IMG/VR virus record: IMGVR_UViG_2561511241_000010
DNA length: 37,472 bases
DNA from: a virus
Taxonomy: Duplodnaviria > Heunggongvirae > Uroviricota > Caudoviricetes
Direction: 5' to 3' (one strand)
The notes below the pieces were generated by a model. The model ran no database searches. It saw only the letters and a list, made by a program, of their open reading frames with translations, and was not told the origin of the DNA. The first letter of the stretch is position 1. Each line of letters begins with the position of its first letter. This document shows, piece after piece, positions 8,830 to 24,963 of the stretch. The translations under genes and the position numbers were made by a program.

Positions 8830-9162
8830 TCAAAGGCATGATCTGGCAGCCGTAGCCCAGTGATCGTTCCATCCTTTTGCGACGGCGTAAACTTTAACAT
8901 CGCTTCCGCCTGCTTCTGATTTATCGATATTCACCACTGAAAGGGCGCCGAAAATATCGTCTGATGCTGTTATTTTGTAACCTGACTCAGTTGGTATGCT
9001 GGAGCTTGAAGATCGAAGCTCCACCCATTTAGGGGCCAGGCATCTGTTAACCTGATCTGCACTCTTTGAAGTGTGTTCAGAAAGAATAGGCTTTTGGGAT
9101 TCGAGGGAGTTTACAGAGCAGCCAGCCAAACCAATAACTAGCACCAAGAATAGCTTTTTCAT
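8830..9162 (-). CDS. Lipoprotein inserted between tail genes K and I
   Basis: Internal start MKKLFLVLVIGLAGC gives signal peptide plus lipobox; GGAG precedes ATG 9168/9162; the longer table ORF (to 9330) would overlap K and is rejected. Confidence 0.55.
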   Translation of the reverse strand: MKKLFLVLVIGLAGCSVNSLESQKPILSEHTSKSADQVNRCLAPKWVELRSSSSSIPTESGYKITASDDIFGALSVVNIDKSEAGGSDVKVYAVAKGWNDHWATAARSCL

Positions 9163-18927: not shown

Positions 18928-20205
18928 TTAAGCCCCGTTATTACGGGGCTCTTTGTTGGTTCCTAAATCGGTGATCGGCACGTATTGCGACTGGCGCATA
19001 GCCACATCGCCACCCGGCAATGGCGGGAGGTTGTCCGTTCGTCGCATCTCGTTGATGGTGCGTAGCCCTGCCTCTCCCATTGCCTTCATAAAGGCTGCGC
19101 GGGATGCCGAATCGCCCCTCAGCAGGCCGTCGAGATTGTGCTCAGCATGAATGCGGCCAACATCCTTAGCGGGAATAAGCCACCGCTGAATGCTGTTTTC
19201 CCACCGGGAGATATAGGGCTGCAGGGTGTACTGCAGGAAGCCGAGATTCTGCTGCTCAATGCCCGATCCCCAGCTCGTTGATTTCTCGACGTCGCCGACA
19301 AGGTGAGGCGGTACGCCAAAGAATCGCGCCAGTTCACTTACCTGAAATTTTCGGGACGCCATCATTTCGGCATCCTGCGGCGTTACGCCAATTGCCGATG
19401 TGGAAAAGCCCGCTTCCAGAATCCAGAGGCGTTTTTTAACCGGACCGCCGGCGATCTCTTTGAAGTTCTCTTCGACCTGCGAGCGCTGCTGTTCAGTCAG
19501 CACTTTTTCGCCGGTTGAGAGGATTTGCGGAGACTTGGCGCCGTTGGCAAAGAAATCTCGCTGCTGGTCCTCCATCGCAACTGCCACACCTGCCGATTTA
19601 CAGGCAAAAGCAATTGGTGACAGGCCGACCAGCCCGGTGAATCCGAAACCTTTAAGGTGAAAAATCTCTCTCTGCGAAAAGTCGGCGTATTCGCTGTCGC
19701 GTTGATAGCGATAAACCACTTTTTTCCCGACGAGTTTCACATCCATATTGGCAGACTGAAGCGGGAGAAGGCTGATCACGTCACCCGCGCTGTTGCGGTC
19801 CACCAGTGCATACGCGTTACCGTAGAAACAGAGCTGCATCGTCATGGCCTCCCTGAACTCCTGGGCGGTCATGTACTGATTCGGTGAGTAGCGCAGCAGT
19901 CGCGCCAGCGGATTGCTCAAACCCACTTTTTTGCGGTTGTCATTCTGGTCGGTTTCGAAGACATCAAGCGGTAAGCATGCCGTGAGCGTTGAAATCAGGC
20001 TCACGCAGCGCCAAACCGTCGAAATTTGCAGTATCCGTTCATCGTTAATGGATGAATCGCCCAGGTGTCCATAGGCCGAAACAGGCCCCGTCTGTGAGCC
20101 CTGATTTGGGGTGACTAAACGCCCGCCGACAAACCAGGACTGCAGCCTTGCCCACCAGCCGTTATTGGTTCGCAGGTCAATCGTGTATTTAGGTTCTTCC
20201 ATCAC
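18928..20205 (-). CDS. Portal protein
   Basis: 425 aa between large terminase and protease; 4-nt overlap with the terminase gene. Confidence 0.9.
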   Translation of the reverse strand: MMEEPKYTIDLRTNNGWWARLQSWFVGGRLVTPNQGSQTGPVSAYGHLGDSSINDERILQISTVWRCVSLISTLTACLPLDVFETDQNDNRKKVGLSNPLARLLRYSPNQYMTAQEFREAMTMQLCFYGNAYALVDRNSAGDVISLLPLQSANMDVKLVGKKVVYRYQRDSEYADFSQREIFHLKGFGFTGLVGLSPIAFACKSAGVAVAMEDQQRDFFANGAKSPQILSTGEKVLTEQQRSQVEENFKEIAGGPVKKRLWILEAGFSTSAIGVTPQDAEMMASRKFQVSELARFFGVPPHLVGDVEKSTSWGSGIEQQNLGFLQYTLQPYISRWENSIQRWLIPAKDVGRIHAEHNLDGLLRGDSASRAAFMKAMGEAGLRTINEMRRTDNLPPLPGGDVAMRQSQYVPITDLGTNKEPRNNGA

Positions 20206-21716
20206 ATGCTCAGCGGTCGGAAAATGAAGTCGTCGAAGTCACCACCCTGTTCGGTAACTTCCCCATTAGCAGCACCAACGGACATTGTCATTGCGACCAT
20301 GCCATCAATACGGCCCGTTGCTTTGGATTTATCCAGCTTACGGTTGCCAGCAGCATCTTTTACGATCACCGCGTTCCAGGCACACATGGTTAACACCGGG
20401 TGCATGCCATGCCTCACCCGCCCGTTAAGCATCAGTGACTCAAGGGTGTCTACAGCCGGGCCCATATCCTTAAAGCCCTGGCCGAACTCGACCAGAGGAA
20501 GGCTCAGGCCGATGTCGTCAGCCTCTTTCCTGAACTGGTCAATGCGCCATCGGTCGAAGGCCATCGAAGTGAGGTCAAAATCACCGATGATTTCGGCGAT
20601 GTCGGCGACCACGAATGAGTAATCGACGGACGCACCGGGCGTGGTACGCAAAAGCCCCTCCCTTGCCCATACGTCATAGGGCGCGCGGTCTGTTTTGGAC
20701 CGTGCTTCCAATGTCTTTTGTGGGGTCCAGAAGAAGGGAAAGATATCCCAGACACCATCATCAGCCTCACCAGCGATAACCAGCGCCGTTAAGTCGTTCC
20801 TGGCCGACAGATCCAGCCCGGCATACCATTTCCTCGGTGTGTTAACCGGTACTCCACCGCACAACTCCCACACGCTGCGGGAGATAAACGGCGATACGGT
20901 CGACACTCTCTGATTAAGGTTGAGATTTCGGAAGGTGTTCTCAAAGCTTGGCATTCGGCCTGCCATTTCAGCCTGGCGCGCCATGTCTTTTTCAGATCTG
21001 AACGTTCCCAGCGCCGGGTTCGCAGCAAGCCAGGATTCTCGCTTACTGATATCAGCGTCTTTTGGCGCTTCGTAAACGTGGCAGACAATGTGCGGGTCTT
21101 TCGATTTGACCGCATCATCAATCCAGATGCTCAACAGGTCGGCATCGTTCGCCGCCTGGGTGCTGATAACGATAAGAAGCGGATTCTCATGCGCACCCTG
21201 GGCTGTAGTAATCGCGTCGATAAAATCATCCTGCGGCCCCCTTACCTGTCCGGTTTCGTCCAGAATCGCCAGAATCGGGGAAAGGCCGTGTGTGGTTTTA
21301 CCCTCAGCAGATAGCGCCTTGTATTCGACATTACACGGCAACCCTATTAGCTTTTTGCCACTGGGAATTATATGCACTAACACCTGCAGGTCCGGGTTCA
21401 GGTTCACCATCTTCACCGCGAGGTTGAAAACGATGGATGCCTGCTCGCGACTAAGCGCGCCGCTTACGATCTGGGTATTCTGTACCGCCTCTGGCCCCAC
21501 CAGATGCGCCAGCAGGATACCGGCTATCAGCCCTGTCTTTCCGTTTTTGCGCGCGATGCTCAGTATCGCTTTATCGGTTCCGACTGGATTGTCGTAAACC
21601 GCCAGGATGAATTCTTTCTGGAAGGGATCAAGCCTCATAGGCTTACCCAGAAGCTTGCCTTCCGGCACGATGCAATAGCGCTCAATGAACGCTATTACAC
21701 GCTCACCTCGCGTCAT
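20202..21716 (-). CDS. Terminase large subunit
   Basis: 504 aa with N-terminal ATPase region and C-terminal nuclease-like region; position. Confidence 0.9.
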   Translation of the reverse strand: MTRGERVIAFIERYCIVPEGKLLGKPMRLDPFQKEFILAVYDNPVGTDKAILSIARKNGKTGLIAGILLAHLVGPEAVQNTQIVSGALSREQASIVFNLAVKMVNLNPDLQVLVHIIPSGKKLIGLPCNVEYKALSAEGKTTHGLSPILAILDETGQVRGPQDDFIDAITTAQGAHENPLLIVISTQAANDADLLSIWIDDAVKSKDPHIVCHVYEAPKDADISKRESWLAANPALGTFRSEKDMARQAEMAGRMPSFENTFRNLNLNQRVSTVSPFISRSVWELCGGVPVNTPRKWYAGLDLSARNDLTALVIAGEADDGVWDIFPFFWTPQKTLEARSKTDRAPYDVWAREGLLRTTPGASVDYSFVVADIAEIIGDFDLTSMAFDRWRIDQFRKEADDIGLSLPLVEFGQGFKDMGPAVDTLESLMLNGRVRHGMHPVLTMCAWNAVIVKDAAGNRKLDKSKATGRIDGMVAMTMSVGAANGEVTEQGGDFDDFIFRPLSM

Positions 21717-21722
21717 AGTCTT

Positions 21723-22208
21723 TTATCCGTGCTTGGGAAAGGCGATCAGGTTGTCGTCCTGGCCCTGATGCTCGTTTTTCGTGTTTCGTGCATCACGATC
21801 ATTCTGATTGCGTTTCTTCTGGTCGCGGCTTTCACCGTTGGTTGCGTGGGAATGGATCTGCAGGTCACGGCGCTGAGCCAGGATAGTTCGCTGCAAATCA
21901 GGAATTTGTTTGCGGAGGTTTTTAATCAGCGCCTCATTTCTCGCTTCACCGCGCGCGCGTTCTTCTTTACGCAAATCTCTGCGTAAAACGGTGAGATAGA
22001 GCTGGTTATTTGCCAGTTCTACAGCGGCCAGAAGGTCGGCTGGCGTCCAGCTGTCCAGAGCTTTCGATCTGATATTGTCATGCCAGAATGGTTCGGCTTT
22101 TTTTTCCAAACCTGCATGGGACGGAGGATCGATGGTGTCCACTGCTGCATTTTTCATGGCCTGAACCGCTGCCGCCGAACTGTCGGAACGGGTTCGTTTA
22201 TCTGCCAT
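21723..22208 (-). CDS. Terminase small subunit
   Basis: 161 aa with basic C-terminus, immediately upstream of the large terminase. Confidence 0.7.
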   Translation of the reverse strand: MADKRTRSDSSAAAVQAMKNAAVDTIDPPSHAGLEKKAEPFWHDNIRSKALDSWTPADLLAAVELANNQLYLTVLRRDLRKEERARGEARNEALIKNLRKQIPDLQRTILAQRRDLQIHSHATNGESRDQKKRNQNDRDARNTKNEHQGQDDNLIAFPKHG

Positions 22209-22392
22209 ATGTCAACACCTTAAAACTAAAAAAATCGGGTTAGCGTTAAAATCAAACTTTGGCGGCGGTCATTTGGGGCAAAGGTTTTGAAGATTTGATC
22301 CCCCCCCCTGCCCTGATGCGATTCATTCTCATTTGATATCATTGCATTTGAAATGATTTCACATGACATGTAATCGACTTGCCACCGCCGCG
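22209..22392. other. Candidate cos / packaging-site region
   Basis: 184-bp non-coding gap between the HNH-side ORFs and the small terminase; contains a C9 run (22300..22308). Confidence 0.35.
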
Positions 22393-22596
22393 CTATGCCG
22401 AATGTTTGTCTACCTGTTCGAGTTTCCGATCGCCTTTCCCGTGCCCGGAGACAACATGCCATGAGACGGTCACTGTCGGCACCTCCTGCCCTACAGCGTG
22501 CGAGAACTGAATGGATGTCACGTCCTTCATCTCCACGCCATCAATCACCAGGCGAACGAATTTTCCATCGCGGTATTCAATGCTGAGGTCTTTCAT
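22393..22596 (-). CDS. Hypothetical small protein
   Basis: 67-aa ORF whose start overlaps the HNH stop by one nucleotide. Confidence 0.35.
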   Translation of the reverse strand: MKDLSIEYRDGKFVRLVIDGVEMKDVTSIQFSHAVGQEVPTVTVSWHVVSGHGKGDRKLEQVDKHSA

Positions 22597-22949
22597 TACG
22601 TGCTCCAGTGAGACGCAGGATCAAGCGGGTAGCCATTGGCATCACAGCCTATTACAGCGCCGCTCTTCTCCATTCTCTGTTTCGTTGAGTCGTGATGTGC
22701 TTTGCACAGTGGCTGCCAGTTCTCTTTACTCCAGAACAGGAGCTGTGCTTTCGATATAGCCAGCGGGTTACCTGACTTAAGCGCATCTTTGAGTTTGTGG
22801 GGTTCGATATGGTCAACCACCGTTGCTGGGGTTATGCGCCCCTGCTGCTCGCACATCACACATAGTGGGTGCTGCTGCAGGAAACGCAGACGGGCCTTAT
22901 CCCATCGGCTGCCATATACGCGGGGCTCTTTGTTCATGCCAGTCTCCAT
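22596..22949 (-). CDS. HNH endonuclease
   Basis: 117 aa with CxxC...H...CxxHH arrangement (CVMCEQQG...VDHIEPH...CKAHH). Confidence 0.85.
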   Translation of the reverse strand: METGMNKEPRVYGSRWDKARLRFLQQHPLCVMCEQQGRITPATVVDHIEPHKLKDALKSGNPLAISKAQLLFWSKENWQPLCKAHHDSTKQRMEKSGAVIGCDANGYPLDPASHWST

Positions 22950-23524
22950 GCGCGCCGGCGTTCCGTCCTCGGCTCGTTGTCAGGGTGACGCTCAACCGTC
23001 GGGAGGTCAGCGTGATCCACCAGCGAGTAACACGGATAAATCACCCGGCCACCGAATGCCTCACCGACGGCGTAATCAGCTGCCAGCGTTTTATTCCATG
23101 CGTTAAGCATGCGCGCCAGCCTGCCCTGAGGAGGGCTGTAACATACGCCGTGAATCAGTTTGCTTAATACGATGTGGTCACCACAGACGCGATCCGCATC
23201 CACCAGCATTCCGGCAATTTCTTTCTGATACTGCGGCGGTCGGCCGGTACCGAGATAAAAGCTCAGCATGTCGTCAGGGAAGCGCACCAGCCATTCAGTT
23301 ACCTTATCGGTGAAGCCCTGTACAGGAAGCGCGTCGTCTTCCAACACCACTACCCGGCATGTTTGCTCTGCTGCCCACTCAAGCGCACGCCGATGATTCC
23401 AGTTCGCGCCGCGGTTACCGTCATCAATAAGCAGATGAGCATCCAGCAGCGCGGTAAGTCGTTGCGCATGACCTATGCGAGAGTGATGGCCAACCACAAC
23501 AAACTTCACTTGTGTTTCCACCAT
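22934..23524 (-). CDS. Putative GT-A-fold glycosyltransferase-like protein
   Basis: 196 aa; pattern NHRRALEWAA...VVVLEDDALPV resembles the acidic-motif core of GT-A (family 25-like) transferases; overlap-coupled to both neighbours. Confidence 0.4.
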   Translation of the reverse strand: MVETQVKFVVVGHHSRIGHAQRLTALLDAHLLIDDGNRGANWNHRRALEWAAEQTCRVVVLEDDALPVQGFTDKVTEWLVRFPDDMLSFYLGTGRPPQYQKEIAGMLVDADRVCGDHIVLSKLIHGVCYSPPQGRLARMLNAWNKTLAADYAVGEAFGGRVIYPCYSLVDHADLPTVERHPDNEPRTERRRAWRLA

Positions 23525-24963
23525 GCGGCCTCCTTACCGATACCATCAGTTTTGAAAACGGTATGTACCAGGGGGCCGGTGACCAGCCTGTCAGCGAATG
23601 ACTGCGCGACAATACCGAACGCCAGCATGTCACCCACCGCGGCGCCAGCCTGTTCTTTCTTCCAGAAACGATAACTCTCTATCCGGTAGTAAAGACGGAT
23701 GATGCCGTGAGCAAACGCCATGACATCAGCGCGGGTACCGCCCAGCAGACCAGCGTTAAGCATCACATCGCCGCGGTGCGCTTCAATGAATTCTTGATAG
23801 ATACGCTCAGGATGATTCTGCTTTGCCCAGGTGTCGGCGTATGTCTTCGGTTCAGAACCGACGTAAACATTCCCGGGCTGCATTTCTTCCCACGGCGCGC
23901 GAAGCATTTCGACATCGGTACCATCTGTACACCACACGAACCGGTATTCAGGGTGATCGCGTAGGTGCTGCCAGATATGCAGCCAGCGCCGGAAGTAGAC
24001 ATTCATCTTCACGTCAGGAACGCGGTAAAGCTCAACGTCTGCCGGTGCCGTCTGTAGTTCATCCACCAGCGCGATGCGGCCACAATGTCGAAGCGAGGCC
24101 GCCCACCCGCTCAACATGTCAGGTGAGGCTACCATTCTCGTACCGCGCTGGGGGTCGGGCTGGCTGGTCAGTAGCGTAGTGATAACCACGTCGCGCTGCT
24201 GGCGGTATTCAACGTAACCAGTAAACCCGGCGTCACGACGTTCGTTGTGGATCTTCACGTTACGTTCCACCAGCGCCTGTCGGTCGGGACGCGGTACCGA
24301 ACGCTCAACGGCTTCATGCTCATCGAGAGAGTGGATCAGCTTTTCTGAACCGAAGACATCAGCGTAAGCCCACGTCGTGAGGCCAGCGTTATGAATCCGC
24401 ATGGCGAGGTCGCTGTGTTCGTACATGCCGCGACCGTAAACCGTATCGAAACCGCCAACCTTCTCGACAGCGCTACGGTGGTAATACAGCATCACGCCGC
24501 GCTGCCCGGTGTAAGCGATGTGCTTATCATCCCGGTACAGGACTGCCATATCCTTCAGCTTATTCGTCCCTGCCAGATCGAGGAACTGGTAAGCCAGGTG
24601 CGGTTCGGGTGATTCGACGTATGGCAGGTGCCAGTTATCAACGATGGGCCAGGCGTCATCGTCCCAAAGGAATAGATGCTCACATCCGGCGTCCATCAGC
24701 GCGGTTAAACTGGCGTTCTTAGAAGCAACAATGCCGAGTGATGTTTCATGGCGAAGCAGCTGCACGCCATCAGGCACTACTGCGGCAGGTTTAGAGCCAT
24801 CGTCGATAACCACCACCAGCGCACCGATGGGAAGATGTTTGGTGTGCTGCTCAATGGCACGCTTTAAAACGTCTGGCCGGTTATGGGTAGTTATGGCAAT
24901 GCCAATCCGTGACGCTGAAGCGCAAGCGGGTACAAACGGGACACCATCAATAGTGACCTGCAT
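23506..24963 (-). CDS. Two-domain protein with N-terminal family 2 glycosyltransferase domain
   Basis: 485 aa; N-terminus IGIAITTHNRPDVLKRAIEQ...VVVIDDGS...LWDDDAWP carries GT2 signature motifs; about 230-aa C-terminal domain of unknown function; no long hydrophobic segments; GTGGAGAA ribosome-binding site. Confidence 0.65.
   Translation of the reverse strand: MQVTIDGVPFVPACASASRIGIAITTHNRPDVLKRAIEQHTKHLPIGALVVVIDDGSKPAAVVPDGVQLLRHETSLGIVASKNASLTALMDAGCEHLFLWDDDAWPIVDNWHLPYVESPEPHLAYQFLDLAGTNKLKDMAVLYRDDKHIAYTGQRGVMLYYHRSAVEKVGGFDTVYGRGMYEHSDLAMRIHNAGLTTWAYADVFGSEKLIHSLDEHEAVERSVPRPDRQALVERNVKIHNERRDAGFTGYVEYRQQRDVVITTLLTSQPDPQRGTRMVASPDMLSGWAASLRHCGRIALVDELQTAPADVELYRVPDVKMNVYFRRWLHIWQHLRDHPEYRFVWCTDGTDVEMLRAPWEEMQPGNVYVGSEPKTYADTWAKQNHPERIYQEFIEAHRGDVMLNAGLLGGTRADVMAFAHGIIRLYYRIESYRFWKKEQAGAAVGDMLAFGIVAQSFADRLVTGPLVHTVFKTDGIGKEAAWWKHK

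Follow-up and report, generated by a model that had tools for sequence, protein, structure and literature searches.

The window considered here is the whole stretch of 37,472 nucleotides, and judged by its homologies it is an HK97-like (Hendrixvirinae) prophage of Escherichia coli. From position 2195 to 37472 it is 99.98% identical to a prophage adjoining ypjA in E. coli ETEC1749. The latter displays a full lambdoid layout, with integrase, repressor, replication, antiterminator, lysis, glycosyltransferase, HNH, terminase, and portal genes, and continues after the portal with an HK97-family protease and capsid and then with the tail genes. The order HNH, cos, terS, terL, portal, HK97-family protease, and capsid is the same in the window and in the ETEC1749 prophage. 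Across the terminase region, the DNA is 88-93% identical to that of the Hendrixvirinae phages Fostie, LMessi, ECP1, the mEp phages, HK97, HK022, and HK75. In the ECP1 record (KY979108.1), the large terminase region carries the label 'portal protein'.

The terS, HNH, terL, and portal genes, together with a 67-aa open reading frame (ORF), all lie on the minus strand. The small terminase TerS (21723-22208) is a homolog of HK97 gp1 with 93.2% identity. It matches PDB entries 8POP and 6Z6E with E about 1e-95, and these matches, together with its assignment to phrog_5601, place it with the HK97 gp1 type and not with the Nu1 type. The large terminase TerL (20202-21716) is a homolog of HK97 gp2 with 95.4% identity, carries the Pfam domains TerL_ATPase and TerL_nuclease, and matches PDB 6Z6D. 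The portal gene, which encodes the docking point of the packaging motor, occupies 18928-20205 (Pfam Phage_portal, E = 2.8e-93). Upstream in gene direction, the HNH endonuclease gene (22596-22949; Pfam PF01844, phrog_2323) encodes a homolog of HK97 gp74. The two HNH proteins are 81% identical in a global alignment and near-identical save at both termini; at the sequence level, a search of the window protein against the PDB gave no match. The TerS, TerL, and HNH proteins are all intact in the window.

Two further observations concern the HNH gene and its surroundings. Its last ~12 residues differ from those of gp74 (GYPLDPASHWST in the window against ATRSILRLTGARNERPHH), and the window ORF begins 4 codons earlier. 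A frameshift-type divergence would explain the C-terminal difference. Directly upstream, positions 22934-24963 encode a glucosyltransferase (phrog_854) and a 485-aa protein that matches a GT2 domain weakly. HK97, unlike the window, is without glycosyltransferase-like genes at this position, and the pair may represent a moron, that is, an extra non-essential cassette, possibly for O-antigen or DNA modification.

Between terS and the 67-aa ORF lies a gap of 184 bp (22209-22392), which a sequence-only reading had put forward as a candidate cos site between the HNH and small-terminase genes. Its extent and its terS neighbor stand as described. The other neighbor is instead the 67-aa ORF (22393-22596, minus strand; phrog_10282, "unknown function"), with the HNH gene one gene further. 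This ORF is probably outside the packaging signal, and a different ORF takes its place in the group of Fostie, LAU1, and LMessi. The gap had also been called free of ORFs, which does not hold mechanically, since a 78-aa ORF (22226-22462, minus strand) spans it. As a gene, this ORF was ruled out because its frame crosses a G tract of length 5-13 among relatives, and no frame survives such variation. Short CDSs called in the gap by some database records are likewise not credible as genes. The described GC richness is true locally (57% GC at 22258-22315), whereas the whole gap has 43% GC against 52% for the window. At the terS edge, the translation start region (22209-22221, minus strand) comprises AAGGTG (22216-22221) as its Shine-Dalgarno sequence, separated from the ATG by 7 nt, and it is invariant in relatives within a 15-phage alignment.

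The placement of the virion ends in this gap is supported by homology. By megablast, both termini of the linear GenBank records for HK97, HK022, and HK75 fall within it. The window minus strand is identical to the final 60 nt of the HK97 record (NC_002167) at 60 of 60 positions, and to the first 49 nt of HK97, from the left end up to the terS ATG, at 48 of 49. In this alignment, HK97 +1 corresponds to window position 22257 and the last base of the HK97 record to 22258. The HK75 record ends with the 10 nt CGCCGCCAAA, which correspond to window positions 22258-22267 and are annotated there as 'cos site'. The HK633 record (NC_019719.1) stops at ...AAATGAC and resumes with GTTTGAATTT, thereby omitting exactly the 10 nt of the cohesive end. 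In our view, loss of the 3' overhang during end repair would explain the missing bases. An assignment of the overhang to the other end was rejected as a source of this 10-nt offset, because the record is simply without those 10 nt. Three unexplained bases (ACT) precede GTTTGAATTT at the HK633 left end.

HK97 virion DNA carries 10-nt 3' overhangs (PMC11331095; Figure 1 legend of PMC9410871). The discussion section of PMC9410871 gives 12-nt 3' overhangs for HK97 and 10-nt 5' overhangs for lambda, which conflicts with its own Figure 1 legend, with PMC11331095, and with the GenBank records. The record ends and the 10-nt 3' overhangs of HK97 together define a cosN equivalent at 22258-22267 on the minus strand, with the overhang CGCCGCCAAA, at which the HK97 and HK022 records also end. 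From the same evidence, we infer nicks at 22258/22257 on the minus strand and at 22267/22268 on the plus strand. A 23-mer across the cos junction occurs once in the window, against 0 occurrences expected by chance. The one left-end substitution lies at +7, where the window has T and HK97 has A. This position is outside the minimal TerS site, and T is the commoner base among the relatives listed. A headful pattern is disfavoured, as the record ends of close relatives are unique and fall at one site, and HK97 has been shown by experiment to be a cos phage (PMC9410871).

Not all database records preserve the physical termini. HK542, HK106, HK544, mEp390, and other records from the submission group of HK633 begin at the terS ATG and not at the physical end. 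In addition, the cohesive end of the LMessi assembly (PP925823.1) coincides precisely with an inverted duplication (...CCCCAAATG C GCGTTAAAATCAAACTTTGGCGGCG ATTTTAACGC...), which looks like an assembly artefact arising at physical termini.

Inside the left end, the window carries the TerS recognition site CTAACCCGATTTTTT, the equivalent of cosB, at 22229-22243 on the minus strand (HK97 +15 to +29). This assignment was made by homology, with 15 of 15 positions identical to HK97. Among the matches listed in the scan described below, the site is invariant in all cos sites with an HK97-type left end (class A). In HK97, the region from +15 to +29 was established as the minimal TerS-binding site by gel-shift assays (EMSA) and by a cryoEM structure of the complex (Chechik et al., PMC11331095). 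In this complex, the DNA runs through the TerS nonamer, with T16 contacted by Arg7 and the G of base pair 21, beside an A-tract, by Arg128 (PMC11331095). Both DNA-reading residues, Arg7 and Arg128, are conserved in the TerS of the window.

The expectation that an HK97-type cos lies between the HNH and terS genes, with the HNH protein aiding cleavage, is borne out by published work (PMC11331095, PMC9410871). Reconstitution of the HK97 system in vitro showed that gp74 enhances cleavage of cos (PMC9410871); TerS sitting on cos also brings the motor to a stall (PMC9410871, PMC10359639). A published in vitro packaging system for HK97 combines TerS, TerL, gp74, and proheads with a pUC18 plasmid into which cos from -312 to +472 was placed. 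The HK97 ends, the identical TerS site, and the TerS, TerL, and HNH homologs together support the cos reading. On this evidence, the gap is very probably the cos site of an HK97-like temperate phage residing as a prophage in E. coli.

It is conceivable that the prophage is defective and that its cos is a relic, still recognizable as that of HK97 but no longer cut, without induction or packaging. The window is indeed a chromosomal prophage, and many prophages are defective. Against this stand the full-length TerS, TerL, portal, and HNH proteins, which are 81-95% identical to their HK97 counterparts. Moreover, the whole 35-kb element displays the complete lambdoid order from integrase to tail fibres, and its cos core and TerS site are without any disabling change. 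A relic is accordingly improbable, and a cos site of the HK97 type in a temperate phage remains the favored reading.

The right half of this cos site contains the homopolymer highlighted by the sequence-only reading. As claimed, nine C residues occupy 22300-22308 on the plus strand, and the next base is T. Read in gene orientation, this is a G9 tract on the minus strand; counting upstream from the bottom-strand nick, the nearer of the two, its 3' edge is reached after 32 bp. Between tract and nick lies a 32-bp right-end spacer, ATCAAATCTTCAAAACCTTTGCCCCAAATGAC (22268-22299, minus strand), which is the last duplex segment and is identical to that of HK97. The C9 run is the sole run of C or G of at least 7 in the window. 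Nonetheless, a C or G run of at least 9 appears somewhere in 26% of mononucleotide shuffles of the window, and C9 alone is therefore statistically unremarkable. The G tract stands out as a real element because its position relative to the cut is conserved near-constantly, and not because of its length.

This conservation emerged from a scan of IMG/VR with the 18-mer pattern CCYAAATGACCGCCGCCA, which returned at least 120 loci. Among those listed, 61 belong to class A, 52 to a second class (class B, HNH-terminase phages of Klebsiella, Serratia, and Pantoea), 3 are record ends, and 4 are unrelated loci, presumably chance matches. Of the 113 listed sites in classes A and B, 112 carry a G-rich tract, as against 0 of the 4 listed chance matches. 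Within the same set, the 3' edge of the tract most often lies 22 nt before the pattern in class A (53/61) and 21 nt before it in class B (47/52). The remaining offsets differ by 1-2 nt, save for two class B outliers among these matches, one with an offset of 30 nt and one with no tract. Tract length ranges from 5 to 13 among the listed sites, and in class B the tract is interrupted (GGGGGAGGGGCGGG). The spacer at 22268-22299 is invariant or near-invariant in class A and largely common to class B. The tract is G9 in the window and in HK97; in the ETEC1749 prophage, 99.98% identical over 35 kb, it is G8. This G9/G8 change (20093-20100 in the ETEC1749 segment) is the sole difference within a 206-bp comparison of the gap, and may be due either to homopolymer slippage or to sequencing error.

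The tract is the most eye-catching element of the gap and its position is conserved, which could suggest that C9/G9 itself is the cleavage point and that the virion ends map to 22300-22308. The ends do fall in the gap, as had been proposed, yet not at the highlighted run: the record ends of HK97, HK022, HK75, and HK633 all lie 32-42 bp downstream of it in gene direction. In addition, tract length varies between 5 and 13 while the cohesive-end sequence is invariant. Cleavage at the tract is thus extremely unlikely, and the favored reading keeps the cut at the cohesive end.

Upstream of the G tract lies a conserved non-coding block, GTGAAATCATTTCAAATGCAATGATATCAAATGAGAATGAATCGCATC (22315-22362, minus strand), which was recognized from conservation across 15 phages. 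In this alignment, conservation extends from 22362 to terS even in phages with a different ORF upstream. The block contains TCAAATG repeats 15 nt apart (D1) and an imperfect dyad (I3) formed by TCATTTCAAAT and ATATCAAATGA with 6 nt between them. It is partly kept in class B phages and is missing from a satellite that carries the cos core (see below). A longer imperfect hairpin (I1, 22319-22376) was rejected. Its outer arm falls in a stretch that is unconserved in the Fostie group, so that only the inner dyad I3 is conserved. The inverted repeats I4 and I6, GCGGCGG-type sequences at 22171-22179 and 22384-22391 pairing with the cohesive end, were also rejected. They are probable chance matches, because the window contains 7 copies each of CGCCGCC and GGCGGCG and because the upstream copy is unconserved in the Fostie group.

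Searches for control signals yielded little in this region. The integration host factor (IHF) consensus WATCAANNNNTTR has two one-mismatch matches in the gap, one over the terS start and one across the nick site, neither of them compelling. HK106 (142-168, approximately window 22350-22376, plus strand) and several other records from the Hendrix laboratory annotate a TTGACA/TATAAT-like 'promoter'. This element points away from the terminase genes and is antisense to the 67-aa ORF and HNH; the scan of the window returned no such site. A gap serving mainly as a control region of the terminase operon (promoter, terminator, or RNA element), with cos elsewhere, can be practically dismissed: the HK106-type promoter-like match, on the strand opposite to the terminase genes, and the terS ribosome-binding site within the gap would speak for it, whereas scans of 22000-22700 found neither a sigma-70-like promoter nor an intrinsic terminator, Rfam at a permissive E-value gave no match over the same interval, and the HK97 cos core occurs in the window here only.

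Comparison with class B separates the cos site into two halves. The phages of this class, for example ST13-OXA48phi12.2, OS31, and AH07, have the right half in common with the window, including a G-rich tract at the same distance, the motif AAAxxTTCAxAACCT, and CCCAAATGAC. The cohesive end likewise agrees with HK97 over its first 8 nt, apart from OS31 and AH07, in which this region is different. In contrast, the class B left half (CCTTTTTGTGCACAACCGCGAAATGAAAAG) is unrelated to the HK97 type, and the left end of the listed loci reads GTCCTTTTTGTGCACAACCGCGAAATGAAAAG. For Pantoea phage AH07, the record starts at the class B position homologous to HK97 +1. Overall, identity between the two classes is ~75-80% across the right half and into the cohesive end as far as its eighth nucleotide, beyond which the sequences are fully divergent, so that the homology break lies inside the overhang. 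A corresponding pattern is found in the proteins. In the class B loci listed, the HNH protein is ~74% identical, TerL and portal are only ~30% and ~32% identical, respectively, and a TerS homolog is lacking. The 67-aa ORF is missing from class B cos phages as well (51 of 52 loci among the matches listed).

By this pattern of identity between classes A and B, the left cos half is inherited with TerS and TerL, and the right half with the HNH gene. Co-inheritance of the left half with TerS and TerL is as expected of a cosB-like site. The pattern as a whole may nonetheless reflect mere linkage around a recombination joint at cos.

A second line of comparison comes from three E. coli chromosomes, ZF34 (NZ_CP047461.1), ZF31, and CUWW06, in which only ~85 bp of the cos region are present. 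Running from a G7 tract through the spacer and CGCCGCCAAA, this core continues into the left end as far as about +35 and thereby takes in the TerS site. In ZF34, the sole one of the three to be examined, the core (9001-9085 of the segment examined) lies between an SSB gene and a gene of the pRiA4b ORF-3 family. It belongs to a ~10-kb island at a tRNA-Thr gene that also encodes an integrase, a small HTH regulator, an Icd-like protein, a P4-family primase, and the SSB. Judged by this gene content, the ZF34 island is probably a phage satellite parasitizing HK97-like helper phages. The boundaries of its homology suggest that the core packaging signal starts at the G tract and reaches about +35, and that the block at 22315-22362 would be dispensable for satellite packaging. 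Reuse of the ~85-bp core by a satellite is as expected for a self-sufficient packaging signal.

The two comparisons raise the question of what the right half contributes. The G tract and its flanks could form a separate module, either an element akin to lambda cosQ or a docking site for HNH-TerL, which would be read by the HNH protein or co-adapted with it, and not with TerS or TerL. Two observations point in this direction. The right half is shared along with HNH kinship between phages whose TerS is unrelated, whose TerL is ~30% identical, and whose intervening ORF is unshared. The satellite also retains the G tract and drops everything upstream of it. We regard such a module as a tentative proposal, less probable than its absence. 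The HK97 papers cited here report no role for the G-rich tract or for the conserved right half.

The site closely follows the organization of HK97. In both, cos follows the HNH gene and precedes terS by 49 bp, and the 60 bp of the right end, the cohesive end CGCCGCCAAA, the TerS site, and the G9 length are all identical. The window differs from HK97 in the T for A at +7, in a few substitutions within the ~30 bp that border the gap upstream, in the C-terminus of the HNH protein, and in its neighboring genes, with glycosyltransferases preceding HNH.

The resemblance to lambda is one of layout. As in the cosQ-cosN-cosB arrangement of lambda, a staggered nick is combined with a small-terminase site located inside the left end, beside the gene for the small terminase. 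Conserved sequence also lies upstream of the nick, as in lambda, and a cosQ-like termination element could reside there. Lambda produces 12-nt 5' overhangs (GGGCGGCGACCT) and relies on R sites for gpNu1 together with IHF. Lambda packaging is not known to involve an HNH partner. A search of the whole window for the lambda cosN sequence GGGCGGCGACCT, allowing up to 2 mismatches, gave 3 matches against 3.8 expected, none of them in the gap. HK97 differs from lambda in its 10-nt 3' overhangs and in its ring-shaped TerS, which threads the DNA (PMC11331095).

Taken together, these features allow a packaging cycle to be outlined on the HK97 model, in which the prophage DNA is inferred to be cut at positions homologous to those of HK97. 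After induction, late transcription would proceed through HNH, cos, and terS-terL on the minus strand. Concatemeric DNA would then be threaded by the nonameric TerS ring, which would read CTAACCCGATTTTTT 15-29 bp inside the left end. TerL, assisted by the HNH protein, would then introduce two nicks 10 nt apart and so generate 3' overhangs consisting of CGCCGCCAAA and its complement. Packaging would start at the left end and move in the order terS, terL, portal, that is, toward lower window coordinates. The next cos would act as the stop, where site-bound TerS would stall the motor and TerL would be switched to its nuclease mode. At the packaged right end, the final stretch of duplex would be made up of the G9 tract and the 32-bp spacer. 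Read in gene orientation, this duplex would terminate in ...CCCCAAATGAC, followed by the 3' tail CGCCGCCAAA, and the left end would begin with GTTTGATTTT.

The site itself corresponds to the already known cos of HK97 in a close relative and adds nothing new as such. Its identification gives single-base coordinates for the origin of packaging and for the virion ends predicted for this prophage, which is useful for annotation, and assigns the element to the best-characterised cos system after that of lambda. The near-fixed distance of the G tract from the cut, its co-inheritance with the HNH gene, and its retention in the satellite make a role of the right half testable in the in vitro packaging system of HK97.
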